Notes: generated by a model from the sequence alone, not told the origin. Positions 5,583-34,209 are shown, counted from the stretch's first letter. The stretch is DNA of 48,762 bases from Actinomycetes bacterium (GCA_965657825.1 CBFHQG010000005.1:1-48762), one strand, 5' to 3'. Made by a program: numbers and translations.

Positions 5583-5595
5583 CACACTGGCGCCC

Positions 5596-5793: not shown

Positions 5794-5799
5794 TTGACG

Positions 5800-9399: not shown

Positions 9400-9405
9400 A
9401 CGACC

Positions 9406-9437
9406 ACCTTAACATGCGAAAATGCATGTCAACATGC
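9406..9437 (-). promoter_or_regulatory. vapBC promoter and autoregulatory operator
   Basis: ACATGC (9412-9417), GCATGT (9424-9429), ACATGC (9432-9437) half-sites; TG-N-TAAGGT -10 6 nt before ATG; TTGACA at 9432-9427. Confidence 0.65.
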
Positions 9438-9446
9438 AAAGAAAGC

Positions 9447-11234: not shown

Positions 11235-11257
11235 CGCCGCCATCGTAGAATCTCCGT

Positions 11258-11380
11258 GTGAATCGGAATCCCCACTCCCCCTTTCCTCGGTTCAGCGATT
11301 CACCCGACGCTGCACCGGTGACGATGGAGATGGTGTCTGAAGCACTGGCCGACGAGGACGAACTCCCACGATCCGGTTAG
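11258..11380 (+). CDS. Small ORF (40 aa) absent from the ORF track, antitoxin C-terminus-like
   Basis: GTG 6 nt after TAGAAT (11246-11251); MNRNPHSPFPRFSDSPDAAPVTMEMVSEALADEDELPRSG. Confidence 0.45.
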   Translation: MNRNPHSPFPRFSDSPDAAPVTMEMVSEALADEDELPRSG

Positions 11381-11390
11381 GTGACAAACC

Positions 11391-12851
11391 GTGGGGAGGC
11401 CCGATGTTCAGGTTGTGTGGTTCAAGCGTGATCTGCGTGTCCACGATCACCCCGCGTTGACTGCAGCCATCGCTACCGGTTCACCGGTCCTGCCTCTCTA
11501 TGTGATCGAGCCCAGTCTGCTCGCCCATCCGCACACCGCACCCCGCCATACGGAACTGGTGCTCGACGGGCTGGCTGACCTGCGCGAATCCCTCGCGCGA
11601 CTGGGAGCACCGCTGGTGGTGCGCGTCGGCGAGGTCGTCGATGTGCTCGAAGCAATGAACTGCGATGTCGCGATTGCAGCGATCCACTCCCACGAGGAGT
11701 TCGAGATCCTCGCGACCTGGCAACGCGACCGGGCGGTCGCTGATTGGTGTCGGGCACGCGGTGTCACCTACACCGAGCACCGGCAAACCGGAGCGATGCG
11801 CGGATTGCGATCCCGCGACCAGTGGAGCAAGCAGCGCATGGAGTTGTTCAACCAACCGCTGCACCCGGTGCCCACTGCGATCCGTGCCACGCAGGTCGAT
11901 CCGGGCCCGATCCCGACGCTGCGTGACCTCGGGCTCACACCTGAGACGATGGAATACCGCCAGCGCGGAAGTGAGCAAGCAGGTCGCGAAGTGATGCGGT
12001 CCTGGTTGACCGAGCGGGTCGACGGTTATCAGCGCAACCTGTCCAGCCCCAACACCGGGTGGAATGGCTGCTCCCGGTTATCGGTGCACCTGGCACTGGG
12101 CACCGTCAGCCCGCGCGAGGTGCATAAACGGGCCGAACGTCGCCACGGTGAAGCGGGATCACCTCGACTATCCCTCGAAGCGTTCGGCGAACGGTTGGCG
12201 TGGCGGGATCACTTCGCCCAGAAGCTCGAGGATGCCCCGTTCATCGAGCAGCGCGCGATCCATCCCGCCTTCGACGGTCTGCGGCCCGAAACACCGAACC
12301 AGGCCGCCCTCGATGCGTTCACCTCGGGGCAGACCGGATATCCCATGGTGGATGCGGTGCTGCGCTCCTTGAAGGCCACCGGGTGGACGACCTTCCGAAT
12401 GCGGTCGATGGTGACCTCGTTCGCGTCCTATGACCTGTGGCTGCCGTGGCAGACCACTGGGCGGGTACTCGCTCGCTGGTTCACCGACTACGACCCGGGC
12501 ATCCACTGGCCGCAGATCCAGATGCAGTCGGGCGTGACGGGGATGAACGCGCTGCGGATCTATGACCCGGTCAAGCAGCAACTCGACCACGACCCCGACG
12601 GGGTGTTCGTGCGCCGCTGGGTGCCCGAGCTACACGACGTACCCGCTGACCTGTTGGCGACACCGTGGCTTGTCGCACCCGAGCAGCGTCACGGGTATCC
12701 CGATCCGATCGTCGACCACTCTGCTGCTGCGGCACAGGCGAAGCGACGCATCAGTGCGGTGCGCCAACGTATCCGCGGTGACGGCTCAACCCGCGCGCTG
12801 TTGGAGCGGCACGGGTCGCGCCGACCCCCGCCGGAACGACGTCGCCCTTAG
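11391..12851 (+). CDS. Cryptochrome/photolyase family FAD-binding protein
   Basis: VVWFKRDLRVHDHPAL, CSRLSVHLALG, GQTGYPMVDA, FTDYDPGIHW, RIYDPVKQ. Confidence 0.92.
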   Translation: MGRPDVQVVWFKRDLRVHDHPALTAAIATGSPVLPLYVIEPSLLAHPHTAPRHTELVLDGLADLRESLARLGAPLVVRVGEVVDVLEAMNCDVAIAAIHSHEEFEILATWQRDRAVADWCRARGVTYTEHRQTGAMRGLRSRDQWSKQRMELFNQPLHPVPTAIRATQVDPGPIPTLRDLGLTPETMEYRQRGSEQAGREVMRSWLTERVDGYQRNLSSPNTGWNGCSRLSVHLALGTVSPREVHKRAERRHGEAGSPRLSLEAFGERLAWRDHFAQKLEDAPFIEQRAIHPAFDGLRPETPNQAALDAFTSGQTGYPMVDAVLRSLKATGWTTFRMRSMVTSFASYDLWLPWQTTGRVLARWFTDYDPGIHWPQIQMQSGVTGMNALRIYDPVKQQLDHDPDGVFVRRWVPELHDVPADLLATPWLVAPEQRHGYPDPIVDHSAAAAQAKRRISAVRQRIRGDGSTRALLERHGSRRPPPERRRP

Positions 12852-14585: not shown

Positions 14586-15452
14586 CTATGCGATGGCGTC
14601 GATCGCCGCGATCGCCTCGGCGTCGAGGGTCACCTCGGCGGCCGCGCAGTTCTCCTCCAGGTGGCTAATGGAGCCGGTGCCCGGGATCGGCAGCATCACC
14701 GGTGATCGCTGCAGCAGCCAGGCGAGGGCGACCTGGGAAGGCAGCACTCCGAGCCGGGCCGCCTGCTGGGCGACGACACCGCCCTCGGCAAGCAGCTCTC
14801 GGTTGCCGAGGGGAAACCACGGGATGAAGCCGATGTTGTGCACGGTGCAGTGAGCGAGCAGCTCCTCGCTCTGGCGCAGCCCCGCGTGATACAGGTTCTG
14901 CACGCTGACGATGTTGAGGGTCTGCTGCGCTGCCTTCAAGTCAGCGACATTGACCTCGGACAGTCCGACGTGGCGGATGAGTCCTTCGTCGACCATCTCG
15001 GCGATCACGCCGAACTGCTCATCGGCGGGCACCTTCGAGTCGATGCGATGCAACTGCCACAGGTCGATGCGATCAACCCCCAATCGACGCAGCGACATCA
15101 TCACGCACTGACGCAGGTATTCCGGGCGACCGACCGGCATCCACTGATCCGGCCCATGCCGGGTCAGGCCGCCCTTGGTGGCGATGACGATGCCGTCATA
15201 GGGATGCAGCGCCTCGCGGATCAGCCGCTCGCTGACCTCCGGGCCATAGGAGTCAGCGGTGTCGATGAAGTCGACGCCGAGTTCGACGGCTTTGCGCAGA
15301 ACCGCACGGGCGTTGTCCAGATCGGCGGGGTCGTCCCAGATGCCAGGGCCGGTGATGCGCATCGCACCGAAACCGAGCCGATGCACGGTGAGTGGATCTG
15401 CGCCATTCGCGTCGAAGGTGAAGGTGCCTGAGGCTGAGATCGGGTTCGTCAC
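14586..15452 (-). CDS. Aldo/keto reductase
   Basis: [39 protein letters not shown]. Confidence 0.92.
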
Positions 15453-19579: not shown

Positions 19580-22500
19580 CTACTGTCCCACCTGTCGAAG
19601 GATGATCCGATTGGAACGCACCCGTTCCATGCTGCTGCTGACAGTCTCGAAGTAGACATACACCTTCTTCTTCGTCCGCCGCTGCCAGCTGAAGCCTCCA
19701 TCACGCACCATCCGCATCGACCCCTGGCGGTAGGTGGTCTCCCCCCTGAGCTTGACCCGAGCCTGCACCCGTTCACCATCGAGGTTCTCGGTGACTCCTG
19801 TGACGAACACCCGCCGAGCCAATGCTCGCGAGACCATCCGTTCGCCGGTGATGCGAATGCTGCGATCCAGCGACTGCTGGACGGCCATTCCCAGATTCGC
19901 ACTCAACGCCTCCAGGCGGCTCGTGGTGCCGACCACCTGCAACACATACTCCCCGGCCACCACCTCATCAGGCAGCACCCACGCTCCGGTGAACATTCCC
20001 GAGTCATCCACCAGCACAGCCCCGATGATCACCGGCTCACCCAGCACCGGAGACGAGTCATCGTCCGTGTCGTGCACATACACCGCGGCATAGGTCGAGG
20101 GGTGGAACCCATCACCGGACACCGCGACGCGCTGCCCGGCCATCGGCTGCACCTGATTGCCCTCCCCCAACGGCAGGGCACGCCCCGCCGGATCCAGTGC
20201 CGCCGCATCCACGGTGTAGTCACCACTGACCACCACCACCGCAGCACCCGCGTCCGGGGTGGCCGTGGCTCGGGGATCCAACTGCCCATCGATGGTCACC
20301 TTCACCGACCCCGCCGGCACCGGACCCGGCACCGGATCAGGCTGAGGAACCGGCTGCGCCGACCCACTCGGGACCACCGGAGCCGACGGTGGCGACTCCG
20401 CCCCCCACCCCGCGCCAGTCAACGCCCGACCGGTGACCGTGTAGGCGACACCATTGGTCAACCCCTCGATCACACACGAGGTTGCCGGCACCGCCACCAC
20501 ACACGACGCACCACCCGGAACCGCCCGCATCAGATAATCACTCACCGGGAACGAACCCGACGACACCGGCGCACCCCACGACACCGACACTCGACCATCC
20601 CCGGCCACAGCACTCACACCCACCGGCGGCCCCGACAGCACAACCGGAGCCGGGGTCGGTGTGGGTGTTGGGCCCGAACCCGAACCTGAGCCGGCTAAGT
20701 TCACAGTCTGCGTGCCACCCGATGTTGCGATGGACAATATGGCGGAGCGGGAGCCGGCTGCCTGCGGGTCGAAGGCCACGTCGATCGTGCAGGACGCGAA
20801 GGCCGTGATGCTCCCGCCATCAGCGCACGTCCCGCCACTTACGGAGAAATCACCGGCGTCCGTCCCCGTGATGGTGATGCCTGGTGAACTAACTCTCACG
20901 ATCGCGGCACCGGAATTCGCTACCGCTACCGTTCGGGTTGTCTGAGAACCCGAACCAACCGCCCGCGTTCCAAACGACATGCTCGAAGCACTGGTTCCGA
21001 GATCAGCTATGGCCCTCCACTGCGCATACAAAGGCAGATCTGCAGTGATGGCTGGGGTGGCTCCAGCCGAGTAGGCGGTGCCGACTCCGACCGCGGAGGT
21101 GTTCCAGCCAGCAAACTCATAGCCAGTTCGCACCAACGTGCCGGCGCCCTCGACGGTGGCTGGATCGTTGTAGTTATAGACAGTCTCATCGGTAGGCGCA
21201 GTTCCCGATGTTGCACCATTGGCGTTGTAGGTGATCGAGTAAGTGGTCGCCGAGGTGTAGGTGAAAGCGTTCGTGGCCCGCACCGCCTGCCCGTCGAGGT
21301 TGAACACGATTACATCGACTTCCCCGGGATCGCCAGGCGGTGTGGTGACAGTGAGCGACGTCGCTGTAAAGGCCGTAACGGTCGCGGCGACACCGCCGAT
21401 CGAGACGGTCGGACCGCTTCCTACCGACGAGAAGTTCGTGCCAGTGATCGTCAACGTTGTTCCCCCGACGGCGTCACCGGATGTCGGCGAGACACCGGAA
21501 ATCCCGGGCGAAGGCGCGTCGATCAGTGGCATTGTGAACTCGATCGTTGACCCGACGTCGGTGCCTGCGCTGTTGGTTGCGGTGACGTTGAAATAGTACG
21601 TGGCTCCCTGGGTCAGACCTGTGACTTCCTTGTAGACAGCCCCAGTCTCGTGGCTTGCCGACAACGGAGATTGATCAGCCGTGACCGAAGTGCAGCCGAC
21701 CAGGGTGGGAGAGGTCCCCCAGCAGAAGGACACATTCGAACTCAAACCACCGGGGTCAATCGATCCGGTGAGGATTGCCTGACCGGCCTTGTCACGGAAG
21801 ATCGCCGAAACGGTGCTCGCGTCCGGGGCGCTGGTCGTACTGAAGCTCACGATGTTGCCGGTATCCGATCCCGTGGAGTTGACGGCTTGGACACGCGCGT
21901 AATACGTCGTCCCAGGCGTCAGCCCCGTCAACGTCTTGCTCACCGACGTGCTGCTCGGCCCAGCGGCAAGGGGCGATTGGTCCGCTGCGACTTCGGTGCA
22001 TCCTGTGAGATCCGGCGCCGTGCCGAAACAGAAGGTAACTGCCGTTACAAGGTTCCCGGGATCAACATTGCCGTTCAGCACTACCGACGTGGTCGCCACC
22101 GACGTTGCCGCCGTCGTGATCGCACCAGGGGTATCGACAACGCCGATGGAGAAGACCTTCGTTGCCGTCTGACTAGTGGCATCAGTCACTTCGATGGTGA
22201 AGGACGACCCTCCATCGAATAGCGGTGTTCCCGAGATCGCCCCCGTCGTCGAATCCAAGGACAGGCCTGACGGCAGCGATCCGGCTACCACACTCCACGT
22301 GTAGGGAGCCGTGCCACCATCTGCCGCCAGCGTCTTGGAGTACACCGTGCCGACAGTGCCCGTGGTGAGAGAACCGGTAGTGGTGGTCAGCACCAGTGGG
22401 CGAGCTGATGTTGTGAAAGAGCCAATCGAACTGCTAGCGCTGCCGTTTGAATTCGTTGCCGTGACGCGCACGTAGTAGGTGGTGGATGGACTTAGCGCAG

Positions 22501-24244
22501 TCAGATCAGCGGACACATCTACTGACGTGCTCACCGCCACCAAAGGAGACTCAGCGGCGGTGACCGCGGTGCAACCCGTAAGGTCCGCAGCGGTTCCGTA
22601 GCAGAACTGCACTGTGGTGCTCAACCCCTTGGGATCAACGGATGCATTCAACCGGGCGTCGGTTGACGTCACATCAGTGGTTGACCCAAGTGTTAGAAAG
22701 GGCACGTCCAACGTGGTGAAGGACACGATCGATCCACTCGCCGATCCATCCGCATTGGTCGCGCTGACCCGCGCGTAATACCGAACACCAGGCGTCAGGC
22801 CAGAAAGCGAGGCGGAAACCGGAGCATCCGAGGTTCCAGAAACCGGAGACTGGCTTGCAGAAATGTATGTGCAGCCCGTGAGATCAGCAGCTGTGCCGTA
22901 GCAGAAGTCAACGGTCGTCGAACGATTTCCCGGATTCACCAGGCCATTGAGAATTGCAGCTGTAGTGGAGACGCTGCTTGCCGACTGGGTAGTCGAGACC
23001 GGCGCTCCTGTCGTGGCGAAGGAAGCGACGCTTCCGTAGGTGGTGGTGAATGAATTCTCAGCCACGACTTGCCAGTAGTAGGTGGTCCTGTTGGTCAGGC
23101 CGGTCAGCGTCAGCGACGTCAAACCGGTCGCACTGCTACCTGTAAGAGGAGCGGCACCACTGGCGTTCGTGAACTGTGAGGTTTGAGTGCATCCCTGCAA
23201 CGCACCACCGCTGGTTGCTGCCGTCGTTCCGTAACAGATCAAAGCTGTTGTCGGTGCTCCGTTGGGATTGACGTCGGCCGTGACACTTGCTGACGTGGCT
23301 GAGACGGATGACGCGGACTCATTCGTGATAGTTGCCGAGAAGGCCGATCCGGCATTTGGGCAGCTAGCGCCATCATTGGCCGGCGACAACGTGGTTCCGC
23401 CAAAGGTCGGGGGAGAACCCATGCTCACCACTTCAGGGTTCGACTCCGACAGTTCGGCGGATTCAATTTTGTAGACACTTCCACCGTTGACGTGGAAGTA
23501 CACGTTGCCGAGCGCGTCAGCGTAGGCAGCCCCCGTACCTCCGCTGGCCATGGCCCCCGACGTTGTCTTGTTGACTACGACTTGCGTTGTCAGGTTGACG
23601 ACCGAAAGTGTCATGGGAGTACTGGCTGTATTGGGGGAAAGCCCGTACGCCGTGTTACCGAGAACGGTGAAATCGGCCGCATTCGAACCAAACGTGTTGC
23701 CGTCCAGAGTGAAATCCGTAACGACTGGGTTGTCGGGATCGGAGACATCAACGCTCTTCCAAGCGTTGTTCCTGTTCTTGCCAAGCAGTAGGCGATTCTC
23801 ACCCCAGAAGTCACCAGCGTTGTAATCGCCGATTCCATTTCCGTTCTGTTTGAGGTCTCCGACATTCGCGTACGTGCCGTTGGCATCAACCCGAATAAGT
23901 TTGCTGTTGTAGTTGGCGTATATGAAGTTGTCGGCTGTGTTGTAGCCCATTCCATTTGGGCCACCAGTCGTAGAGTCGCCCACCGTGCTGTAGGTGTTTG
24001 TCACCGGGTCGTAGACATACAACCTCGGGCCAGGAGCCGCAGACTGATACAGCTTCGGTTCGCAGGTGAACGGCACCGGACTGCTCGCCGGTGCCACGGC
24101 CGCCTCTTCTTCCACCTGCGACACCGCATCAACCTCTGACTGCGGCTCAGCCGCCGTGGCGTAAGCCGGCAGAATCCCGGCCCCCAGAGCGAGGGCGGCC
24201 AGGGCGGGCACGAGGCGGCTGCGGGGGGATAACCGGCCGGTCAT
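19580..24244 (-). CDS. Large secreted surface protein (FN3-like repeats, putative Ig, IPT/TIG, InlB B-repeat-like, choice-of-anchor D, FN3, basic C-terminal domain)
   Basis: Signal peptide; S/T/G-rich; GGTAPYTWS...GSLPSGLSL, ISGVSPTSG...GGTTLTITGTNF, YNANGA...RTGYEFAGWNT...LYAQW. Confidence 0.88.
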   Translation of the reverse strand: MTGRLSPRSRLVPALAALALGAGILPAYATAAEPQSEVDAVSQVEEEAAVAPASSPVPFTCEPKLYQSAAPGPRLYVYDPVTNTYSTVGDSTTGGPNGMGYNTADNFIYANYNSKLIRVDANGTYANVGDLKQNGNGIGDYNAGDFWGENRLLLGKNRNNAWKSVDVSDPDNPVVTDFTLDGNTFGSNAADFTVLGNTAYGLSPNTASTPMTLSVVNLTTQVVVNKTTSGAMASGGTGAAYADALGNVYFHVNGGSVYKIESAELSESNPEVVSMGSPPTFGGTTLSPANDGASCPNAGSAFSATITNESASSVSATSASVTADVNPNGAPTTALICYGTTAATSGGALQGCTQTSQFTNASGAAPLTGSSATGLTSLTLTGLTNRTTYYWQVVAENSFTTTYGSVASFATTGAPVSTTQSASSVSTTAAILNGLVNPGNRSTTVDFCYGTAADLTGCTYISASQSPVSGTSDAPVSASLSGLTPGVRYYARVSATNADGSASGSIVSFTTLDVPFLTLGSTTDVTSTDARLNASVDPKGLSTTVQFCYGTAADLTGCTAVTAAESPLVAVSTSVDVSADLTALSPSTTYYVRVTATNSNGSASSSIGSFTTSARPLVLTTTTGSLTTGTVGTVYSKTLAADGGTAPYTWSVVAGSLPSGLSLDSTTGAISGTPLFDGGSSFTIEVTDATSQTATKVFSIGVVDTPGAITTAATSVATTSVVLNGNVDPGNLVTAVTFCFGTAPDLTGCTEVAADQSPLAAGPSSTSVSKTLTGLTPGTTYYARVQAVNSTGSDTGNIVSFSTTSAPDASTVSAIFRDKAGQAILTGSIDPGGLSSNVSFCWGTSPTLVGCTSVTADQSPLSASHETGAVYKEVTGLTQGATYYFNVTATNSAGTDVGSTIEFTMPLIDAPSPGISGVSPTSGDAVGGTTLTITGTNFSSVGSGPTVSIGGVAATVTAFTATSLTVTTPPGDPGEVDVIVFNLDGQAVRATNAFTYTSATTYSITYNANGATSGTAPTDETVYNYNDPATVEGAGTLVRTGYEFAGWNTSAVGVGTAYSAGATPAITADLPLYAQWRAIADLGTSASSMSFGTRAVGSGSQTTRTVAVANSGAAIVRVSSPGITITGTDAGDFSVSGGTCADGGSITAFASCTIDVAFDPQAAGSRSAILSIATSGGTQTVNLAGSGSGSGPTPTPTPAPVVLSGPPVGVSAVAGDGRVSVSWGAPVSSGSFPVSDYLMRAVPGGASCVVAVPATSCVIEGLTNGVAYTVTGRALTGAGWGAESPPSAPVVPSGSAQPVPQPDPVPGPVPAGSVKVTIDGQLDPRATATPDAGAAVVVVSGDYTVDAAALDPAGRALPLGEGNQVQPMAGQRVAVSGDGFHPSTYAAVYVHDTDDDSSPVLGEPVIIGAVLVDDSGMFTGAWVLPDEVVAGEYVLQVVGTTSRLEALSANLGMAVQQSLDRSIRITGERMVSRALARRVFVTGVTENLDGERVQARVKLRGETTYRQGSMRMVRDGGFSWQRRTKKKVYVYFETVSSSMERVRSNRIILRQVGQ
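21535..23340 (-). repeat. Five ~100-aa FN3-like protein repeats (FCYGT..LTGC...GLTP..YY.RV.A.N), with an Ig-like domain between copies 3 and 4
   Basis: Visible in the translation; boundaries approximate. Confidence 0.8.
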
Positions 24245-24415: not shown

Positions 24416-24451
24416 TGTCTGACCCTTGATCTAGAATCGTACTCATGTTCG
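24416..24451 (+). promoter_or_regulatory. RecA-NDp-like promoter plus LexA SOS-box-like site
   Basis: TGTCTG-N10-TAGAAT (24416-24437); CGTAC-TCAT-GTTCG (24438-24451, one mismatch to CGAAC-N4-GTTCG) over the ATG. Confidence 0.7.
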
Positions 24452-25911
24452 CATCCTCGCATCTGACTCCGGAGGGCCGCTACGGGTTGGCCCTGGATCA
24501 GATCGAGGCTGGCTTGGATGTGCTCACCGAGGCCGATCCCACCGAGTTGGATCCTTCAGTTCTGGGTGGGTTCATGCTGAAGCTGATGACTCAGTCCCGG
24601 AGCATGGGTGCTGCCCAATCAGTCCTCGCCGACCGATTCGCATCGTCTGGTGTGTGGGCTGATGAGGGGGCGAAGACTGCGCACGCGTGGGTGACCGCGA
24701 AGACGAACGAGTCCCTGCACCGGGCCCGGGCGGCGGTGGACACCGGTGCGGGGATGCGGGCCCATCCGGAGATGGCGGTCGCCTACGCCGAGGGGAAAGT
24801 CTCCGCCCGGCATGTGGACATCCTGGCTGCGACGGCCGGCAAGTTCCCGACCGTGCGGGGGCACCTGGAAGCGAATGCCGACGTGATCGTGGAGATCGCG
24901 ACCCACCTGCCGGCCAAAGACTTCGCTGAGAACCTAACCGCGTGGTGCCACATGTTCGACCCGGGCGCGGTCGAGCGCGATGAACGTAAACGCGACAGTG
25001 AGGCCTATCTGCATCTGTCCCGGATCGGGGGCGGCATGTGGCGGCTGGACGGATTGCTGCCCGACGAGGTCGGGACGCAATTCAAAGCGCTGCTGGATGC
25101 CGCGCTGCGCCGGGTACGGGCTGATGCGAAGAAGAAAGATCGCGCCGAGGATGGGTTTGCGCAGGAACGATTGTCAGATTCAGGCGATAGTGGCAAGGAA
25201 ACGTGCGCAAATTCAAACTCTGAGGTGATCGGCATTGATGTGTTGGGCAACCCGATCTATGCCGACGAGACTCCAACCGAGGTGATGGACAACCGGTTCG
25301 GATCCCGGCAGAACATTGATGGTCTGCGCTACCTGTTCAACCTCCTCGCCCCCGCCACCAACCCTGACGGCACCATCGCCCTACCGACTGTGAACGGAGC
25401 CCGACCGGTGGTGCACCTGACCGTCGACATCGAATCCCTTCTCGAAGACTCCAGGAACGCAGCCGCAGCGTGGCTCGAGCGGTTCGGGGTGCCGACCAGC
25501 GTGATCTCCGCGGCGAAAGCGAAGCTGCTGGCCTGTGACGCCACGCTCGAGCCGATGATCATGCGCGACGGACAACTCCTCGCCACCCTGCCCAGTATCC
25601 AGACCGTACCCGCCCACCTACGCAAAGCGGTCATGCTGCGCGATGAGGCCTGCCGGATCAACTCCTGTGACGCACCGATCGCCGAGGTCCATCACCTGAT
25701 CTACCTGTCCCAGGGCGGACCGACCACGATGAGCAACCTCGCCGGCCTGTGCTGGTACCACCACCACATGATCCACGAGGGGAAATGGACCCTCACCGGC
25801 GATGCAAATCACGAACTCACCCTGACCAACACCGCCACCGGTCAGCAATGGACCAACCGGCCACCACCCAAGAAACGCGTAGGACTTCCTCGCCAGCGAA
25901 AACGGGAATGA
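24445..25911 (+). CDS. DUF222 / HNH endonuclease (13E12-repeat-like)
   Basis: GMWRLDGLL, RPVVHLTVD, LACDA, LRKAVMLRDEACRINSC...EVHHL...GGPTTMSNLAGLCWYHHHMIH. Confidence 0.9.
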   Translation: MFASSHLTPEGRYGLALDQIEAGLDVLTEADPTELDPSVLGGFMLKLMTQSRSMGAAQSVLADRFASSGVWADEGAKTAHAWVTAKTNESLHRARAAVDTGAGMRAHPEMAVAYAEGKVSARHVDILAATAGKFPTVRGHLEANADVIVEIATHLPAKDFAENLTAWCHMFDPGAVERDERKRDSEAYLHLSRIGGGMWRLDGLLPDEVGTQFKALLDAALRRVRADAKKKDRAEDGFAQERLSDSGDSGKETCANSNSEVIGIDVLGNPIYADETPTEVMDNRFGSRQNIDGLRYLFNLLAPATNPDGTIALPTVNGARPVVHLTVDIESLLEDSRNAAAAWLERFGVPTSVISAAKAKLLACDATLEPMIMRDGQLLATLPSIQTVPAHLRKAVMLRDEACRINSCDAPIAEVHHLIYLSQGGPTTMSNLAGLCWYHHHMIHEGKWTLTGDANHELTLTNTATGQQWTNRPPPKKRVGLPRQRKRE

Positions 25912-25918
25912 CCCGCCG

Positions 25919-27877
25919 TCAACGGGGAATGATGATCCGGTTGGACCGAGTTTTCTGCCCGTCCTCGCCCACGGCCTGGAAGAACACATAGACCCGCTTG
26001 TTGGTCCGCCGCTGCCAGGTCACATCCTGCTTACCCCGAGCCACCCGGATGCTCTCGGCAACCGCATAGCGCACCTGCCCCGGCCACCTCACCCACACCG
26101 ACACCGAACCTGTCGACATGCCCGACACCTCGCCAACCACGCTCACCATCCGACCCGTGCGCGAACCGGTCACCACGATCGCAGGTGCAGCCACCGGAGT
26201 TACTGAGACAGGCTCACTCCGCGCCCCCCAACCAGCACCGGTCAACGCCCGCACCCGCACCTCATACTCCGTACCGTTCGACAGGCCCTCCAAGGTGCAG
26301 CCGGTAGTTTCCGCGGAAACCAGACACGACCCACCACTTGGCCGTGTCGTCACCTGATAGTGAGTGATCGGAAACGACCCGGACGATTCCGGTGCAGCCC
26401 ACAACACTGATGCTGAACTATCGCCACCTGTCACAACCACGTCGACAGGCGCTGATGCAGGGACTGCCGGAGTGGGCTGAGGCGGCGCTGTTAGACCAGT
26501 GCCGGAGAGCCCAGCCGTTACCGAACCTGCTGACGTTGCAACTGTAAGCGTGGCGGAACGTGCACCGGATTGTGTCGGAGCAAACGCGAGATCAATCGTG
26601 CAGGAACCACCGACAGCAACAGTGGCGCCCGCATTACACGTGCCGCCGGTGACCGTGTAGTGGCCATCGTCAATGCCCGTGATCGTGATGCCCCCGCCGT
26701 TGATCGTCAGTGAGGAGCCACCGGTGTTACTGAACGTGATACTGGAGGTGACGGAGGTAGCACCCACCGTGATCGACCCGAAGGGCACACTCGCTGAGCT
26801 GAGGGTGGGTGTGGGTGCGGGGCCCGCGATGAAGGTATTCGTCGCCGCGATCCCCGCCGGGACCGTGGAACTGCCGTTGTAGATCAGATCGGGGGTGTTC
26901 CCAGAGAACGTGTTTCCGGTGACGGTGGCGGTTGCGGGAGCCGTCACGGAAGTTGACAACCCGTAGTCGGCATTGTTGATGAACTGATTGTCGGTCACAG
27001 TGTTGTGAAAGAACCAGCCTTTGGCGTCACTCTTCCAGGGATTGATTTCCGCACCGAGGCTGTTGGCCTCTATTCGATTGTTGTGGAACTCATGATTGCC
27101 AGCTCCCACGAACGACGCGGCCTGGTAGTTGCGCAGGAAAGTCGAATCGCGCACGATCATGGTGCGTTGGGCGCGGAGAGTTATGAAGTCCTCATTGTCG
27201 ACAAACGTCGACCCTTCGATGGTGACGACGTTGTTAGCCGGAACCCCAGAATCCGTCGACCCATGGTTGGCTTGAATCAGGTAGGACGAGTCATCTGCTG
27301 AATTGTTGCGAAAGGTGCTGTCCTGGATCGTCAGGAATGAATCCGATTCCTTGTTGTAGACGATGTTTCCCCATGCCGATCCCGTCAACATGATGTTCTC
27401 GACAGTGACACGACGGAAAATGGTGGTCGCTTTCGTGTTGTGGATCAGCGACCCAAAGTTTCGATCGGCTGGAGGCGTTCCGGTGAGCGTCATGTCTGTG
27501 ACGGTGGTGTTGCCCCCGTTGATGAAGAACGGACGGAACGTCCCGGAATCCACGGTGAGGGACGACTCGCCCGGACCGCTGATCGTCACCTGTTTCGTGA
27601 ACTGCGGCAGACTGGATGTCAGCGTGATCACCGCTGGATCTGGAAGCGAGAACGTAATCGTGTATCCGTTTCCGGAATTCGCCGTGATGATCGCCTCCCG
27701 GAGGGTCAAGACCCCATCACTCGAGTTCACCGTATCGGCAGTGCTATCGACGATCAGGATCGAGGAGGCCGCCACCTCAGTTGCGTTCATCGTCCCGGTC
27801 GTGACCACACCGCCAATCAGTACTCCGACCGCCAGAATCCCAAGCCCACGACGACCCACTGGTGAAACGACACTCAC
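25919..27877 (-). CDS. Secreted surface protein (CSLREA-like N-terminus, beta-helix, choice-of-anchor D, FN3, basic C-terminal domain)
   Basis: VDSTADT...LTLREAI, STFRNN/STFVDN beta-helix repeats, GSFPITHY...RALTGAGWG; start 27877 or 27880. Confidence 0.85.
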   Translation of the reverse strand: MSVVSPVGRRGLGILAVGVLIGGVVTTGTMNATEVAASSILIVDSTADTVNSSDGVLTLREAIITANSGNGYTITFSLPDPAVITLTSSLPQFTKQVTISGPGESSLTVDSGTFRPFFINGGNTTVTDMTLTGTPPADRNFGSLIHNTKATTIFRRVTVENIMLTGSAWGNIVYNKESDSFLTIQDSTFRNNSADDSSYLIQANHGSTDSGVPANNVVTIEGSTFVDNEDFITLRAQRTMIVRDSTFLRNYQAASFVGAGNHEFHNNRIEANSLGAEINPWKSDAKGWFFHNTVTDNQFINNADYGLSTSVTAPATATVTGNTFSGNTPDLIYNGSSTVPAGIAATNTFIAGPAPTPTLSSASVPFGSITVGATSVTSSITFSNTGGSSLTINGGGITITGIDDGHYTVTGGTCNAGATVAVGGSCTIDLAFAPTQSGARSATLTVATSAGSVTAGLSGTGLTAPPQPTPAVPASAPVDVVVTGGDSSASVLWAAPESSGSFPITHYQVTTRPSGGSCLVSAETTGCTLEGLSNGTEYEVRVRALTGAGWGARSEPVSVTPVAAPAIVVTGSRTGRMVSVVGEVSGMSTGSVSVWVRWPGQVRYAVAESIRVARGKQDVTWQRRTNKRVYVFFQAVGEDGQKTRSNRIIIPR

Positions 27878-27917
27878 CACCCCAAGTTAGGTGATTCCCT
27901 GAGCGGAACCACCGATC

Positions 27918-28398: not shown

Positions 28399-29454
28399 AT
28401 GGAACCCTCGCCCGAAATGCCCCAGCAGTACGTGCCCGATCCGCACCGCTATGACGGTCGGATGCCGCAGCGACGATGCGGTCGCAGTGGACTGCACCTG
28501 CCAGCGGTGACCATCGGGTGCTGGTGGAACTTCGGCGATGACACCCCGCTGATGACCCAGCGCGAGATGCTGCACACCGCATTCGACCTCGGCATCACCC
28601 ACTTCGACCTCGCCAATAACTACGGCCCGCCCTACGGCTCAGCCGAGAAGAACGTCGGACGCATCCTGCGCGAGGACTTCGCGAACCTGCGCGATGAACT
28701 CATCATCTCCTCCAAGGCCGGCTGGGATATGTGGCCTGGGCCCTACGGCGATCTCGGTTCGCGCAAATACCTGCTCGCCAGTCTCGATGCGAGCCTCGAT
28801 CGACTCGGACTCGACTACGTCGACATCTTCTATCACCATCGCCCCGACGAGAACACGCCGTTAGAGGAGTCGATGGGAGCGCTGGCGACAGCGGTGGCGC
28901 AGGGCAAAGCACTGTACGTCGGCATCTCGTCCTACTCACCCTCGCGCACGGCGCGGGCAGCGCGCATCCTCGCCGAGATGGGCGTGCCACTGCTGATCCA
29001 CCAGCCGTCGTATTCGATGTTCAATCGCTGGATCGAGGAAGGACTGCTCGACACCCTCGAGGAGTTGGGCATCGGTGCGATCACGTTCTCGCCACTCGCC
29101 CAGGGGTTGCTCACCGACCGGTACGCCAACGGCATCCCCGAGGGTGCACGTCCCACCCAGGGCAAGAGCTTCGATCCGCAGTTGGCGACACCGGACAACC
29201 TCGAGCGGGTGCGCGGGCTCGCGGCGATCGCCGCAGCACGCGGGCAGAGCCTCGCGCAGATGGCGGTGTCATGGACCCTGCGAGACGACCGCGTGACCTC
29301 GACTCTCGTGGGTGCGTCGAGTGCGACCCAACTTCGTGAGACTGCAGCGGCGGCGTCACGTACCGACTTCACCGATGCCGAGATCATCGCGATCGACGAG
29401 TTCGCCGTCGAGGGCGGTGTCGACCTGTGGCGCTGGGTGTCGCGTTTCAGTTAA
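28399..29454 (+). CDS. Aldo/keto reductase, L-glyceraldehyde 3-phosphate reductase (YghZ/Gpr)-like
   Basis: GITHFDLANNYGPPYGSAE, SSKAGWDMWPGPYG, GKALYVGISSY, IHQPSYSM. Confidence 0.9.
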   Translation: MEPSPEMPQQYVPDPHRYDGRMPQRRCGRSGLHLPAVTIGCWWNFGDDTPLMTQREMLHTAFDLGITHFDLANNYGPPYGSAEKNVGRILREDFANLRDELIISSKAGWDMWPGPYGDLGSRKYLLASLDASLDRLGLDYVDIFYHHRPDENTPLEESMGALATAVAQGKALYVGISSYSPSRTARAARILAEMGVPLLIHQPSYSMFNRWIEEGLLDTLEELGIGAITFSPLAQGLLTDRYANGIPEGARPTQGKSFDPQLATPDNLERVRGLAAIAAARGQSLAQMAVSWTLRDDRVTSTLVGASSATQLRETAAAASRTDFTDAEIIAIDEFAVEGGVDLWRWVSRFS

Positions 29455-29807
29455 GCGGAGGAACCGGTCGTGACGCGCCGGACGATGGCCTGCGCGGTCG
29501 ACGCATCGGCCGACACCACCAGGCTTCGGTAGGGCTCGTCATGCAGTTCCAGCACCACTCCGGGATCACGCTTATATAGGGCGACGAAGTTCCGTCCGTC
29601 CCGGTGCCGCAGACCACCGAGGAGGAACAGGCCCGGGACCCCAGCGGGTACCCGCCATCCTCGGGCGGCCTGCCACGGATCGGTTGAATACTCCGCGCGA
29701 TCGATGTGATCCCAGGGGATCATCAGGTCACCCCGCAGCGCATACATCCGCTCCCACCTGCCCAGGTGCACCTCGAGGGCGGCATCGGTCAACACGAGTC
29801 GGGCCAC
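29451..29807 (-). CDS. Conserved hypothetical protein (bacterial PH-like)
   Basis: GTG start VARLVLTD; WER...RGDLMIPW...RGWRVP...PG...YRSLVVS. Confidence 0.65.
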   Translation of the reverse strand: MARLVLTDAALEVHLGRWERMYALRGDLMIPWDHIDRAEYSTDPWQAARGWRVPAGVPGLFLLGGLRHRDGRNFVALYKRDPGVVLELHDEPYRSLVVSADASTAQAIVRRVTTGSSA

Positions 29808-29843
29808 GGGAGCAAGCCTGGCATGCGTGTCGTCTCCGGGCAG

Positions 29844-29865
29844 TGTCGGAGGGCGGTGGCATGCT
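29844..29865 (+). promoter_or_regulatory. RecA-NDp/PafBC-like promoter
   Basis: TGTCGG-N10-CATGCT, 7 nt before ATG 29873. Confidence 0.65.
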
Positions 29866-29872
29866 CGCGGGT

Positions 29873-30748
29873 ATGGCACGCAATTCCGCTCGCGACCGAG
29901 TCCTCGTCGAGGTGCCGACGAATGCCGTGCCCGCCGGCCCGTGGTCGGCCACCAGCGTCGAGTCCTTCACCGGCTGCCCCCTGAAGTACTGGTGGAGCAA
30001 GGTCGAGAAATGGGAGACCCCCTCCACGCTCCCTCTGGTCGTCGGGCGTGCGGTGCACGCCGCCCTCGAGGGCCTGCTCGCACTGCCTCCCGATGAGCGC
30101 ACCCGCGAGGCCGGGGTCCCGCTGCTCGACGCCGCCCTCGTCGACGAGCTCGCCCTCGTCGCCGACACGTCATTCCATATCGGCATCGACCCCGAGGCCG
30201 TGCGCGAGGCCGCCTACACCGCCTACGACGCCTACTTCACCACCGAATCGCCCGATGAGATCGACGTCGTGGGGCTCGAGCGCGAGGTCGCCACCGAGAT
30301 CCGCGGTTTGCCGTTTCGCGGATTCATCGACCGGATCGCCCGGGCCGACGATGGCCTGCGTGTCACCGACTACAAGACCGGCGCAGCCAAGCCCCGCTAC
30401 TGGTGGGGATACTGGCGCCAGCAACTGCTGTACGCCCAGGCCCTCACCGAATCCGGCGAGGACATCGCACAGGTCGAACTTCTCTTCCTGACGTCGCCGC
30501 GAGCGGTGACCCGCCCGGTATATGCCACCGCGCTCGCCCGTGCAATCGACGATCTGGAACGTGCCAATGACGAGCGCGCACGCATGGCTGAGGCAGCCCG
30601 CTGGGAGGCGCGCACCGGTCCCCTGTGCGGATGGTGCGACTTCCGTCATGCCTGCCCCACCCAGCAGCGCAATGCCCCCGCCCCCGGATCACAGGCCAGC
30701 GACGAGGTACTTACCCGCGCCGGGCTGCGCAAACGCGGAACGCCATGA
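29873..30748 (+). CDS. RecB/Cas4-like PD-(D/E)XK nuclease
   Basis: SATS...CP, GRAVHAALE, LERE, GFIDRI, DYKTG, QLLYA, CGWCDFRHACP. Confidence 0.9.
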   Translation: MARNSARDRVLVEVPTNAVPAGPWSATSVESFTGCPLKYWWSKVEKWETPSTLPLVVGRAVHAALEGLLALPPDERTREAGVPLLDAALVDELALVADTSFHIGIDPEAVREAAYTAYDAYFTTESPDEIDVVGLEREVATEIRGLPFRGFIDRIARADDGLRVTDYKTGAAKPRYWWGYWRQQLLYAQALTESGEDIAQVELLFLTSPRAVTRPVYATALARAIDDLERANDERARMAEAARWEARTGPLCGWCDFRHACPTQQRNAPAPGSQASDEVLTRAGLRKRGTP

Positions 30749-32535
30749 CCGAACACCTCGACATCCCCACCTGGACTCCACCCTGGCCGAGCGAGGGCCA
30801 GGTCACGTTCCTGCGCATCTCCGCCTCCTCACTGTCCGGTGACTCCCGATGGACCTGCGCCGAACAGGTCGCCAAGAAAGCGCGACCGCAGATCTCCCCC
30901 GAGCGAGATCGTTCAGCAAGAGTGGTCTACCCGCCCTATGAAGACGTGCCGATCGGGATGGTCCGTGACGCGCTCTACGACATGCTGGCCAAGGGCGCCG
31001 ATATCGACCAAGCCCTGGCTTCTCGCGATGCCGAGGCCCGACGTGAGATCAGCGACCCCACACGCGCAGCCATGCGAGCCGGTATCGAGGGGTACCTCGC
31101 TGTCCTCTCGGATCTGACTCGAAGCGGTGAACTGCCCGCCGACACCGTGGTCCGCGAGTTCACCGCGATCGATGCGATCCCTCCGGCCGGTCGGGTGGAG
31201 TGGTACGGCTGGGGCCTGATGCACACCTCGCGCGACAGCGCGATCCGCGAATACCACCTGCTTACCTGGAGCAAAGCCGGCACCCGCGAGCGCAGTGCAG
31301 CCTCACTTGCGGTCTATGCCCGGATCGCCGCCGATGCCGTCAACGTCCACGACGGCACCGCGTGGTGGGAGCCACGCGTGGAGAACAGTGCTCAGCCGCG
31401 GCCCGGCCGCGAGGTGCGAATCCGCGAGATCGGCCTGCTGGACCGATCCTGGGAACTGCGTTACACCGACACCGTCGAGGCGGCCCGCGAGTTCTTCGCC
31501 GCGCACGTACCACCGGCACTCGGTGTGCTCGCCGGTGGCCACTACCAGCCGACGGCCCGCTGCTCATCCTGCGCACTTCGTAGCGCCTGCCCCGGAATCC
31601 CGCGCATGCCCGGGGTGCTCGGGGTGATCGGCGAGTCGACCTGGCCGCGGGCATTCAGGCCCGGTGACATCTCCCACGGCCGTCACTGCACTGAGCAGGT
31701 GTTCTTATCCCGCACCCTCGGTCTGCCCGGGACACGAGGCGAACCCACCGAGGCGATGCAGCGTGGCAATGACGTCCATGCATGGCTCGAGCACGCCCAT
31801 GCCCGCCGCGAGGCGTGCACGATCGAGGACCTCCCCGCTGATGCAGCCGACCCGATCGCTGCGCGCCTGGGTTGGTCCGACGAGCGCTACCTCTCCCGAC
31901 GGCCCTATCTGCAGGCTCATCTCGACGTGTGCGCGCTGGCACGCTATGACGCAGAGAACGCATTCCCCGAAGTCACCCTCGCCGGGTGGGACACCGACGT
32001 CGATGTTGTCGTATCCACTCGCGCCGATCTCGTGATCGCTGACGGTGACGTGGTCGTGGTCCGGGAAACAAAGACCGTCTACGACGCCGACGACAGCCTC
32101 AGCGATTCGCAACTGCTCTATCGCTACCCGCAGATCGCTCTGAGTGTGTGCCTGCTCGCCGACGGTCTCGATCCCCTCACCGGGCAGTTGCTCGACGTCC
32201 CTCATCCTGCGCGCATCGAGTTGGAATTCCTCACCGCCGACGGTGCGCACGTGCGCTCCTTCGATGTCAGCGATCCCGAGATCGTGTTACTCGCCCGGAT
32301 ACACCTCGCCGAGGGCATCGATCGCCTCCTCTACGACAGCCCGACTGCGAATCCCGGGCGCTGGTGCACCTGGTGTCCGGTGCAGCGCTGGTGCCCGGCT
32401 GCAGCCGTGGCAGAGGATGGATCCTGGACCGGCGAGGAAGTGGAGTCCGAAAGTGAGGGCGAAGGTGCGCGCACCTCGCTCCTCGCTCTCGCCGAGACCG
32501 CCACCTACGACGAAGATGAGGACATCCCCTTCTGA
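30745..32535 (+). CDS. Tandem PD-(D/E)XK (Cas4-like) domain protein with acidic tail
   Basis: ATGA overlap with the previous gene; two C...CxxC-x5-C sets; second domain has GNDVHAWLE, PEV, RADL, RETKT, YPQ; ends DEDEDIPF. Confidence 0.8.
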   Translation: MTEHLDIPTWTPPWPSEGQVTFLRISASSLSGDSRWTCAEQVAKKARPQISPERDRSARVVYPPYEDVPIGMVRDALYDMLAKGADIDQALASRDAEARREISDPTRAAMRAGIEGYLAVLSDLTRSGELPADTVVREFTAIDAIPPAGRVEWYGWGLMHTSRDSAIREYHLLTWSKAGTRERSAASLAVYARIAADAVNVHDGTAWWEPRVENSAQPRPGREVRIREIGLLDRSWELRYTDTVEAAREFFAAHVPPALGVLAGGHYQPTARCSSCALRSACPGIPRMPGVLGVIGESTWPRAFRPGDISHGRHCTEQVFLSRTLGLPGTRGEPTEAMQRGNDVHAWLEHAHARREACTIEDLPADAADPIAARLGWSDERYLSRRPYLQAHLDVCALARYDAENAFPEVTLAGWDTDVDVVVSTRADLVIADGDVVVVRETKTVYDADDSLSDSQLLYRYPQIALSVCLLADGLDPLTGQLLDVPHPARIELEFLTADGAHVRSFDVSDPEIVLLARIHLAEGIDRLLYDSPTANPGRWCTWCPVQRWCPAAAVAEDGSWTGEEVESESEGEGARTSLLALAETATYDEDEDIPF

Positions 32536-32578
32536 GGTTTCGTCCGCCACGTCATCGACACCCCTAGACTGACCGACC

Positions 32579-32806
32579 ATGAGCGACAACGCGCCGGCCA
32601 TCCCCTGGTCCTCACGGGCGCCGCAGAAGTACGTCCTGTCCATCATCACGATCGTCATCGGAGTCGCCCTGATGGTCACAGCCGTCGCCTACATCGCCAA
32701 CGGAACCGGCGGAGTGGTGCCGTTCCTCATGCTGGTCGTGGCCCCCGTGCTCACCGTGGTCTATGTGTATTCCTTCCTGTTCAAGAAGTGGGAATCCACC
32801 GAGTGA
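32579..32806 (+). CDS. Small two-TM membrane protein
   Basis: Two hydrophobic segments; TAGACT just upstream. Confidence 0.7.
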   Translation: MSDNAPAIPWSSRAPQKYVLSIITIVIGVALMVTAVAYIANGTGGVVPFLMLVVAPVLTVVYVYSFLFKKWESTE

Positions 32807-33222
32807 GCTCACCTGAGTTGCGGGCTGGTGACGCTGATCGCGATCGGGTCATCGAGCAGTTGCGCGAGGCCTACGCCGAAGGACGTCTGACCACCGACGA
32901 ACTCGACCAGCGCATCGACGCTGCACACCAGGCACGCACGATGTCCGATCTGACACCCCTGACCGCCGATCTCCCCGCTCCGGTCCCCGCCCCCGTGGAC
33001 ACCGATGCCGTTCAAAAGGCGAAGCAGAAGGCCAAGGTGGCCAAGGATCTCCGCTCTACCTGGGCAGCGTGGCTCGGTGTCGGCGTGCTGGTCAACATCA
33101 TCTGGCTCGCCACCGGATTGACCAGTAGCGGATTCGGCTACTACTGGCCGATCTGGGTCATCGGCCCATGGGGCGGTGGTCTTCTCATCTGGCAACTGAC
33201 CTACTGGTTCGGATCGGACTGA
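32803..33222 (+). CDS. DUF1707 (SHOCT-like) membrane protein
   Basis: LRAGDADRDRVIEQLREAYAEGRL...LTADLP; YYWPIWVIGPWG. Confidence 0.88.
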   Translation: MSSPELRAGDADRDRVIEQLREAYAEGRLTTDELDQRIDAAHQARTMSDLTPLTADLPAPVPAPVDTDAVQKAKQKAKVAKDLRSTWAAWLGVGVLVNIIWLATGLTSSGFGYYWPIWVIGPWGGGLLIWQLTYWFGSD

Positions 33223-33225
33223 CCC

Positions 33226-34209
33226 ATGACGATGCAGATGCGTGAACTCGGCACAGCCCGACTGCGAGTGAGCGAGCAGGGACTGGGCTGTATGGGGATG
33301 TCGACCACCTACGGACCCAGTCACGACGACACCAGCACCGCGGTGATCCATCGTGCGCTCGACCTCGGCGTGACGTTCTTCGACACCGCCGATGTGTACG
33401 GGTCCGGACACAACGAGGACTTGGTCGGGCGTGCACTCAGTGCTCGCCGCGACGACATCGTGCTCGCCACGAAGTGCGGATTCGGACCGGACCTGTCCGT
33501 GCACGGCAATCCCGACTACATCCGCTCCGCATGCGATGCCAGCCTGCAGCGCCTCGGTACCGACCGGATCGATCTGTACTACCTGCATCGCGTGGACCCG
33601 ACCGTCCCGATCGAGGAGTCGGTGGGTGCGATGGCTGAGCTCGTGTCTGCGGGCAAGATCCGCCACATCGGTCTGTCCGAGGCGAGTTCTGCATCCCTGC
33701 GTCGAGCCGCTGCCGTGCACCCCATCACCGCGCTGCAAAGTGAATGGTCGCTGTGGACTCGCGACCTGGAGGACGATGTGCTCGCTACCGCTCGTGAACT
33801 CGGGATCGGCATCGTGCCCTACAGCCCGCTAGGTCGCGGATTCCTCACCGGAACCGTGACCAGCGAGGACTTCGACTCCCAGGACATGCGCCGCTCCCAT
33901 CCACGGTTCCACGGAGAGGCTCTCCACGCCAACCTGCAATTGGTCGAGCGCGTCCGCGAGATTGCCGAGCGACATGGGGTGACTCCGAATCAGATCGCCC
34001 TGGCCTGGGTGCTCGACCAGGGGACTGACGTCGTGCCGATTCCGGGTACCAAACGCATCGAATACCTCGAATCCAATGTCGCCGCGGGCGATGTGCGGCT
34101 GACCGATGAGGATCGACACATTCTCGCGGAGATCTTCGCTCCCGGAGCAGTCACCGGAGCCCGGTACGGACGTGCGCACAGTTACGGAGATTCACCGCTG
34201 CCCGCTTAA
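33226..34209 (+). CDS. Aldo/keto reductase
   Basis: [47 protein letters not shown]. Confidence 0.92.

Follow-up and report, generated by a model that had tools for sequence, protein, structure and literature searches.

Nuclease domains of the Cas4/RecB type cut only single strands that are threaded into them, and as a rule they depend on an adjacent helicase, Cas1 integrase or Argonaute. In ACE1, a nuclease of the Cas4 family, the active site lies in a narrow channel that admits single strands only; ACE1 supports immunity by prokaryotic Argonautes (pAgo), and solo-Cas4 may act as an independent immune system, according to the available portion of PMC12094033. A further system of relevance, pPIWI-RE, is a bacterial PIWI family; PMC3702460 describes it as an operon of three genes and, supplementary files excepted, mentions neither RecB nor Cas4. 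In this study, a stretch of 48,762 nucleotides (nt) from an Actinomycetes bacterium (GCA_965657825.1 CBFHQG010000005.1:1-48762), referred to here as the window, was analyzed for two overlapping genes, gene 1 and gene 2, predicted to encode iron-sulfur (Fe-S) DNA nucleases. Structural modeling indicated that the two proteins probably act as one complex that lacks a helicase.

The fold of these proteins and its iron staple were known already, as was their relative in pPIWI-RE systems. Neither a coupled pair holding three such folds nor a tail like that of the single-stranded DNA-binding protein (SSB) was found in literature searches, supplementary files lying outside their scope. Here, the fold occurred three times in two coupled genes without an operon partner of the kinds named above, and the acidic C-terminal tail of gene 2 was the only visible substitute for one. 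The homology of gene 2 to pPIWI-RE nucleases and its SSB-like tail each alter what the lack of a helicase implies.

Three Cas4/RecB-type folds in two coupled genes

The open frame of gene 1 spanned 29684..30748, with a likely start at ATG 29861 and alternatives at GTG 29843 and ATG 29873; the start coordinate given in the original prediction, 29844, was one base off this GTG. The remainder of that description of the locus held, namely two genes joined by an ATGA overlap, a full RecB/Cas4 motif set with one plus three cysteines in gene 1, and two successive domains with the same arrangement of cysteines in gene 2, the second of which keeps active-site residues (Table 1). Each of the three folds carried a C...CX2CX5C cysteine set.

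The gene 1 protein matched Pfam PDDEXK_1 (PF12705) over residues 28-266, with an E value of 1e-28 and 101.4 bits against a cut-off of 22, and the nuclease domain of AdnA was the best profile match of its alignment (E 7e-13). Across 22 aligned homologs, C39, H66, E129, D157 (IDR), D170-Y171-K172, C256, C259 and C265 were invariant, as were R214, R218 and P219, and Q187 and Y191 were at least 90% conserved. The CRISPR Cas4 equivalog of NCBIfam, TIGR00372, was not reached by gene 1 (32.7 bits vs. a cut-off of 65) and gave no match to gene 2. A conserved C-terminal extension, PxPGSxxSDxxLxxxGL, was specific to the paired clade, and outside the block of close homologs gene 1 graded into proteins of approximately 300 amino acids (aa) named "putative RecB family exonuclease", with an identity of 34% or less. 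By its motifs, the gene 1 product is predicted to be a complete Cas4/AdnA-type Fe-S nuclease.

Gene 2 matched PDDEXK_1 at residues 312-551 alone, within its C domain (E 2.2e-19; 70.8 bits, cut-off 22). C315, C541, C544, C550, E409, D428, E441-T-K443 and Q463 of this domain were invariant in 21 homologs, and the AdnA nuclease domain matched it structurally with a Z score of 14.3 over 225 residues (root-mean-square deviation, rmsd, 4.3; 21% identity). The C domain thus looks like an active Cas4/AdnA-type nuclease and would provide the second complete active site. Between its first Fe-S cysteine and its catalytic strands sat a further invariant arrangement, H-x6-H-x5-C ... H-x3-C, formed by H345, H352, C358, H392 and C396 and representing a possible second metal site. 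The equivalent residues were invariant in the tail-less and solo sets of relatives described below, and the arrangement was present in the tailed, solo and pPIWI-RE branches.

The N-terminal half of gene 2 had no match in Pfam or NCBIfam, and the best that gene 2 reached in a profile search of the PDB was E 0.46. Gene 2 was modeled at full length with AlphaFold2 (predicted local distance difference test, pLDDT, 84.2; predicted template modeling score, pTM, 0.80), and since the C domain filled the full-length hit list, the N domain was also folded separately (residues 1-303; pLDDT 83.7). In a search of 48,161 chains independent of Foldseek, the N domain had the AdnA nuclease as its first match (Z 10.2, rmsd 5.3 over 221 residues), followed by AddB (Z 8.5), ACE1 (8.3), a putative exonuclease (8.2), Dna2 (7.9) and Cas4 (7.2). 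The top seven chains were all nuclease domains of the RecB/Cas4 type, with unrelated helical fragments from Z 6 down. Foldseek placed ACE1 first (E 5e-7) and AdnA next (E 1e-5), and RecC chains were among its weak matches (probability 0.44-0.63). Both searches support the earlier suggestion that this half of gene 2 is Cas4-like, and on its modeled structure the N domain is a very diverged copy of the Cas4/RecB fold. Sequence homology between the N domain and gene 1 was rejected, as hhalign aligned just 21 columns at the cysteine motif, with a probability of 61%.

The cysteines of the N domain (C38, C273, C276 and C282) were invariant in the 21 gene 2 homologs, and the catalytic motif D...(D/E)xK...QxxxY was absent from the domain in the alignments. 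With its Fe-S cysteines kept and its catalytic lysine and QxxxY lost, the N domain appears degenerate and is presumably inactive. The conservation of motifs would fit the proposal of two active sites together with a non-canonical domain, although E152, R168 and E169 of the N domain were kept family-wide.

Complex prediction for gene 1 and gene 2 gave a median interaction prediction score from aligned errors (ipSAE) of 0.77, vs. 0.01 for the best of three controls, consistent with the heteromeric nuclease first proposed. Of 80 solved complexes, 58 attained the mark set for this score, as did 2 of 110 mismatched pairs; this calibration is only rough because the prediction used alignments built in this analysis. 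Neither partner fell below a pLDDT of 86, and agreement between runs extended to 1% or more of the contacts. When contacts were defined by an expected error below 8 Å in the best run, gene 1 would touch gene 2 through residues 163-164, 177-183, 185, 189, 205, 216, 218-224 and 227, and gene 2 would contribute its inter-domain linker (289-299), a loop (417-420) and a helix (511-530, with contacts at 511-512, 515, 518-519, 522-524, 526-527 and 530). The lowest errors fell on linker residues 293-296, and the gene 2 tail was outside the named contacts. Both sides of the predicted interface included invariant residues; P289, G290, G293 and V294 of the linker and V514, A517, R518, A522 and D526 of the helix were invariant in the 21 homologs. 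We infer from this model that gene 1 and gene 2 form a complex.

The pairing was examined in 45 loci, taken from one genome per species and mostly from metagenome-assembled genomes labelled Candidatus Nanopelagicales or Actinomycetota. A gene 1 homolog was directly upstream of the gene 2 homolog in 42 of them, so that the pairing is conserved in other genomes, as the original prediction would have it. Of the three exceptions, two had gene 2 at the end of a contig, and the other (Amycolatopsis) matched the C half only. Distant members of the class kept the pair too, in three genomes with identities of 32-35%. The stop of gene 1 overlapped the start of gene 2 in all 40 loci assessed, in which both ends were readable, by 4 nt in 33 loci, 1 nt in three, 8 nt in two and 11 nt in two. 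Distant clades had only the pair in common; their flanking genes differed and their upstream open reading frames (ORFs) were mutually unrelated. A divergent ORF at 29451-29879 on the minus strand was considered as a conserved third gene and rejected, having no Pfam match, synteny in the near clade only and no relation to the upstream ORFs of the distant paired loci.

Pfam detected no helicase domain in gene 1 or gene 2, and neither has a UvrD-type motor. In the surroundings, no helicase, cas gene or integrase was found among 22 neighboring ORFs searched with Pfam and 23 other window ORFs searched with PADLOC, as had been noted originally, with the cas-gene result covering these ORF scans and no repeat or CRISPR-array search having been made.

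Table 1. Positions of the gene 1 and gene 2 features in the window
Feature	Position	Strand	Remarks
Gene 1	29861..30748	+	295 aa; predicted stand-alone Cas4/AdnA-type Fe-S nuclease
Gene 1 fourth cysteine ligand, C39	29975-29977	+	
Gene 1 catalytic motifs D157 (IDR), D170-Y171-K172, Q187...Y191	30329..30433	+	Alignment of 22 homologs
Gene 1 interface region, residues 177-227	30389..30541	+	Most predicted contacts with gene 2
Gene 1 CX2CX5C (C256, C259, C265)	30626..30655	+	All four cysteines invariant
ATGA, gene 1 stop/gene 2 start overlap	30745..30748	+	
Gene 2	30745..32535	+	Start ATG 30745; 596 aa; two Cas4-like domains and acidic tail
Gene 2 N domain, residues 18-285	30796..31599	+	Fold searches and alignments; C38 and C273/C276/C282
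Gene 2 inter-domain linker, residues 289-299 (PGVLGV...)	31609..31641	+	Predicted contact with gene 1
Gene 2 C domain, residues 300-556	31642..32412	+	C315 and C541/C544/C550, E409, D428, E441, K443, Q463
Gene 2 C domain, invariant H345, H352, C358, H392, C396	31777..31932	+	Alignment of 21 homologs
Gene 2 helix, residues 511-530	32275..32334	+	Predicted packing on gene 1
Gene 2 C-terminal linker, residues 557-596	32413..32532	+	Low model confidence; acidic tip D589-EDEDIPF-596 at 32509-32532

The pPIWI-RE branch of the family and the acidic tail

Gene 2 matched the PADLOC model PprPDDEXK (PDLC02423) with an E value of 5.1e-46 and 155.8 bits, over residues 96-555 and profile positions 15-446 of 449. 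Core members of PprPDDEXK scored 391-734 bits, and gene 2 would therefore be an outlying relative. Searching genomes with this model led to large actinomycete genomes, in which the matching gene, of 573-610 aa, headed a four-gene operon and was followed by PprRE (pPIWI_RE_Y and REase), PprDinG (pPIWI_RE_Z and helicase) and PprPIWI; the presence of pPIWI_RE_Y, pPIWI_RE_Z and PIWI as operon partners identified "Ppr" as the pPIWI-RE system. The name PprPDDEXK was found in no paper by literature search, supplementary files aside, nor was any publication found on the fourth gene, which is known from PADLOC. Both cysteine sets, E152, W156, D164, R168, D428, E441, K443 and Q463 were invariant in gene 2 and the Streptomyces-type operon nucleases. 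By these alignments, gene 2 is a member of a small family that contains, as its second branch, PprPDDEXK, the accessory nuclease found in actinobacterial pPIWI-RE (Argonaute-like) operons.

The family is rare, with 192 cluster representatives recovered among 1.84 billion representative proteins by an N-domain profile, 115 of them at E 1e-10 or better. Among the best 150 of the 192, 107 were at least 480 aa long, the N domain was N-terminal in nearly all, the maximum length was 759 aa and no helicase fusion was found. The full operon of nuclease, PprRE, PprDinG and PprPIWI was present in 76 of 80 loci fetched with tail-less proteins, and a gene 1 homolog in none of them; these 80 loci were selected by tail-less queries, and the tails of the loci themselves were not read. 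PprRE, PprDinG and PprPIWI were not found in the window by the Pfam and PADLOC scans, and Pfam detected no Ppr genes among 30 flanking ORFs of six distant paired loci, the other paired loci not having been queried for Ppr genes.

Single members of the family had contexts of their own. In two Streptomyces-type pPIWI-RE loci, L060 (G028:C5) and L061 (G157:C2), the nuclease gene was preceded directly by a Ser/Thr protein kinase gene in the opposite orientation, and L060 additionally had an adjacent N6 DNA methylase gene. A tail-less member on a Streptomyces kaempferi contig (L126, 8001-9596), with 8 kb flanks on both sides, had no PprRE, DinG or PIWI match and may be either an orphan or what is left of a decayed operon.

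All 21 gene 2 homologs ended in an acidic stretch and [IVLMF]-P-F after a variable linker, with P595 and F596 invariant, and residues 567-596 of gene 2 had a pLDDT below 50. Gene 2 of the window terminates in ...DEDEDIPF and the main SSB of the host in ...GGDEPPF; the tip of E. coli SSB is DDDIPF. The likeness to SSB was limited to this C-terminal tip, Pfam giving no match of gene 2 to the SSB OB fold (PF00436). Among the best 150 of the 192 relatives, a PF terminus was present in 40 of the 107 full-length members, nearly always after acidic residues, with ...DDDEPPF, ...DDEPPPF and ...DEDIPF as examples. Frames ending in PF numbered 7 of 11,289 in the host genome (stop-to-stop, at least 100 aa).

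With the tail columns excluded from tree building, 61 tail-less rows formed one clade with a support of 100, and outside it were 41 tailed and six scattered tail-less rows; the tail changed six times on this tree, vs. 33 times in shuffles. A second tailed clade was used to fetch a further 61 loci. Of these, 20 were tailed with neither Ppr genes nor gene 1, one was tailed with PprRE and DinG, 34 were tail-less with Ppr genes and six were tail-less without them. The tail and the pPIWI-RE operons, which supply their own DinG helicase, were thus almost mutually exclusive, a split that is to be read as a pattern and not as a statistic because related genomes are not independent samples. That the tail is tied to gene 1 was rejected on the basis of the 20 tailed loci without a gene 1 homolog. 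The lone tailed locus with Ppr genes (L172, Nonomuraea longicatena contig, 5001-6656) ended in ...ADDDEPPF next to PprRE and PprDinG, and this member could be an intermediate between the tailed and the pPIWI-RE branches.

SSB-like tips were also seen in three other frames of the host, C1:3-665 (plus strand), C156:2-652 (plus strand) and C191:170-1171 (minus strand), with ...DSDPPPF, ...DDDPPPF and ...ADPPF among the three. None of these HNH-like frames had a Pfam match. The C191 frame was 39% identical (E 9e-57) to a DUF222-HNH endonuclease of the window, to which the C156 frame was weakly similar (E 0.007). This window gene (24445-25911, plus strand; Pfam DUF222 1.2e-18, HNH 2.7e-5) lies 4 kb upstream of the pair and has a basic C-terminus (...PRQRKRE) without an acidic PF tail. 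From their termini, HNH endonuclease paralogs of the host may use the same tail.

Proposed mechanism and alternative explanations

The picture that we prefer, and that we hold as a whole to be slightly short of evenly balanced, is that of a heterodimer with two active sites in single-strand channels, a degenerate Cas4 domain as a scaffold or strand guide, and a mimic of the SSB tip that replaces the helicase in genome maintenance. In the model, gene 1 would pack on the inter-domain linker and the C-domain helix of gene 2, bringing together the two complete Cas4-type active sites of gene 1 and the gene 2 C domain. The nuclease-like domain of RecC is dead and has a role as a scaffold or guide for single-stranded DNA (ssDNA), and the N domain of gene 2 would act likewise. 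With its active sites in single-strand channels, the complex should cut ssDNA or ends unwound by other proteins. The acidic ...DIPF tip would dock the complex on the pockets of SSB clients, such as helicases and recombination mediators, in place of a co-encoded helicase. The most likely role would be the processing of ssDNA gaps or ends by a chromosomal pair that is stably kept in a few actinobacterial lineages.

Stable inheritance is suggested by the distribution of the pair, which was near-fixed within genera and syntenic, with no defence genes around it and no phage match. Of 151 genomes from the family of the host, 33 had the pair, with a concentration in four of 16 genera (5/6, 17/20, 9/21 and 1/1 genomes), and the synteny around it was conserved in the near clade. 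A mobile element was rejected, since 50,697 phage records held no homolog, the surroundings showed no integrase and the tRNAs of the window, confined to 43.8-47.2 kb, came no closer than 11 kb. The host has a separate AdnAB-like pair on another contig, and the module would therefore be an addition to that system and not a replacement for it. The original prediction also had the module acting in damage-inducible repair or anti-phage defence, and damage induction was not supported. The LexA box consensus is TCGAAC-N4-GTTCGA, and no such box was found in 29186-30276, all 49 matches in the window having two to three mismatches. For the PafBC-type motif, the sole match near gene 1 (29844-29865) had two mismatches, with 18 matches in the window vs. 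12.6 expected, and no sigma-70-like promoter was found in 29300-32900. Control by SOS or PafBC was dropped, as these scans gave it no support.

The same anatomy could serve defence instead, with the pair as an independent nuclease against plasmids or phages that descends from, or gave rise to, the accessory nuclease of pPIWI-RE systems; it would degrade foreign DNA that is single-stranded or replicating, guided by its tail to replication or entry intermediates rich in SSB. We regard this as unlikely, though it is the strongest of the competing explanations. It draws on the PprPDDEXK match of gene 2, on the two-domain layout common to the Streptomyces-type proteins, on the prevalence of four-gene pPIWI-RE operons among the loci fetched with tail-less queries, and on the patchy occurrence of the pair in the class, where 8 of 301 genomes had it. 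Homologs on plasmids were found in four records and were distant (28-33% identity), and the copy on a Rhodococcus plasmid was tailed (...DDEDEPPPF), lacked gene 1 and stood in a defence-like island beside genes for an EcoRI-family methyltransferase and a DUF262 protein. ACE1 and solo-Cas4 offer a precedent in the accessible part of PMC12094033. However, the near-fixed and syntenic pair was not in variable islands, its neighbors were genes for aldo-keto reductases, a thioesterase, a LysR regulator and a DUF1707 protein, and no defence island was found around it in the Pfam and PADLOC scans. PADLOC gave just one match among the 23 other window ORFs, an ABC-type ATPase gene at 9447-11243, approximately 19 kb away and hit by generic models. 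The phage records held no copies, and nothing pointed to discrimination between self and non-self DNA. The host genome (96% complete) also gave no match to the pPIWI-RE RNaseH domain (PF13032), though the search was equally silent in all control genomes.

A different explanation concerns the tail, which might not be a docking tip at all; it could be an internal DNA mimic that occupies the DNA-binding channel of the enzyme and silences the nuclease in the absence of a signal, or a lineage-specific disordered appendage. The acidic tails of SSB, T7 gp2.5 and T4 gp32 also bind their own DNA-binding surfaces, and the gene 2 tail is acidic, modeled with low confidence at 567-596 and preceded by a variable linker, all of which fits this explanation. 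On the other side, a terminal [IVLFP]-P-F after two to four acidic residues recurred in 40 family clusters and in distant clades, matching the host SSB with more specificity than acidity by itself would give, and loss of the tail accompanied a co-encoded helicase, so that we consider such a role for the tail quite improbable.

Least likely of all, and very improbable in our estimation, is that gene 2 is a self-sufficient nuclease and gene 1 an ordinary "RecB family exonuclease" that shares its operon by chance, as solo tailed homologs without gene 1 (20 loci and the plasmid copy), the gradation of gene 1 into such exonucleases and the conservation of the gene 2 interface motif where gene 1 is absent would allow, against which stand the adjacency in 42 of 45 loci and the stop/start overlap in 40 of 40, down to 32-40% identity, a complex score far above the controls and a gene 1 extension specific to the paired clade.

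Several observations weigh against the heterodimer with a genome-maintenance role. The predicted binding comes from a single structure-prediction job with our own alignments, and the linker motif in the interface is also conserved in pPIWI-RE-type proteins without gene 1, so its conservation may have another cause. The tail is independent of gene 1, as the 20 tailed loci and the Rhodococcus plasmid copy show, and its action as an SSB tip is suggested by resemblance in sequence. With E152, R168 and E169 in place, the N domain could be non-canonically catalytic. The nearest characterized context of the family is a predicted defence system, the tailed plasmid homolog lies beside methyltransferase and DUF262 genes, and the pair is patchy above the genus level. 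A host with its own AdnAB has no obvious repair need for the module. Transcription is hinted at by five short contigs from RNA libraries, which can hold DNA; these contigs, from three libraries in two studies, matched both genes at 95-100% identity and covered 29741-29891, 29924-30073, 30012-30162 and 30092-30241, all within gene 1 or immediately ahead of it, together with 31314-31569 in gene 2; stretches that lack cover carry no information.

Returning to the heterodimer with its docking tip, a broader idea can be drawn from the distribution of the tail. It may be a portable adaptor to the network of SSB clients, by which a motor-less nuclease borrows a helicase or mediator that docks on SSB, and the family would then have switched between a helicase in the operon without a tail and a tail without a helicase. 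We put this forward as speculative and, on balance, unlikely. Should the tail work in this way, it would give a simple answer to how a nuclease without a motor finds its substrate, and it would link the chromosomal pair and the solo tailed branch with the tail-less fourth gene of pPIWI-RE operons. If the DUF222-HNH paralogs of the host use such a tail as well, mimicry of the SSB tip would be a general route of actinobacterial nucleases to ssDNA, and the pair a machine of three Cas4 folds built on it.

Genomic surroundings and comparison with known systems

Three aldo-keto reductase paralogs were present in the window (28399-29454, 33226-34209 and 14586-15452), two of which bracket the pair, an arrangement shared in synteny by the near clade. 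The HNH gene lies between two large predicted surface proteins encoded on the minus strand (19580-24244 and 25919-27880), which contain fibronectin type III, IPT/TIG, He_PIG and NosD-like repeats and are unrelated to the pair. Two distant paired loci were convergent to genes for an SbcC-like ATPase and a metallophosphoesterase, and one of them had a DEAD-box helicase two genes upstream. In L042 these genes are at 7812-12019 (minus strand), and the SbcC-like ATPase (AAA_27/AAA_23) is 988 aa long and has a C-terminal Lsr2 DNA-binding domain; L036 was placed with L042 by clustering. Solo tailed relatives were located between xseA and DUF4245/glpX in 11 of 24 loci checked. Both contexts speak for a stable role of the housekeeping kind.

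Among described systems, PprPDDEXK is homologous to gene 2 in both domains and similar in length, at approximately 540-610 aa. Unlike gene 2, it has no acidic ...PF tail and no neighboring gene 1, and the identity is 24-33%. ACE1 resembles the pair in being a helicase-less Cas4-family Fe-S nuclease within a heterodimer. However, ACE1 is a single domain of approximately 278 aa that works with a long-A pAgo, whereas the pair has three Cas4 folds on two chains, an SSB-like tail and no Argonaute. Two adjacent genes of the Cas4 family are also known from the adaptation modules of type I-A CRISPR systems (available part of PMC5704561), in contrast to which the ORF scans made here, with no search for arrays among them, turned up neither cas1 nor cas2 nor any further cas gene.

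RecB and RecC combine a live PD-(D/E)XK domain with a degenerate copy in one machine, as the pair would, but RecC is part of a motor complex and lacks the Fe-S cysteines that the gene 2 N domain has kept. The nuclease domains of mycobacterial AdnAB (PDB 6PPR, 7SJR and 9NP6) and AddAB share with the pair the iron-staple pattern of cysteines and the D...(D/E)xK...QxxxY motifs, and AdnA was the best structural match of both gene 2 domains. AdnAB and AddAB carry a UvrD-type motor, which gene 1 and gene 2 are without. It is to the C-terminal tip of SSB that the gene 2 tail bears its likeness, in its flexible linker, its acidic residues and its terminal [IP]-P-F.

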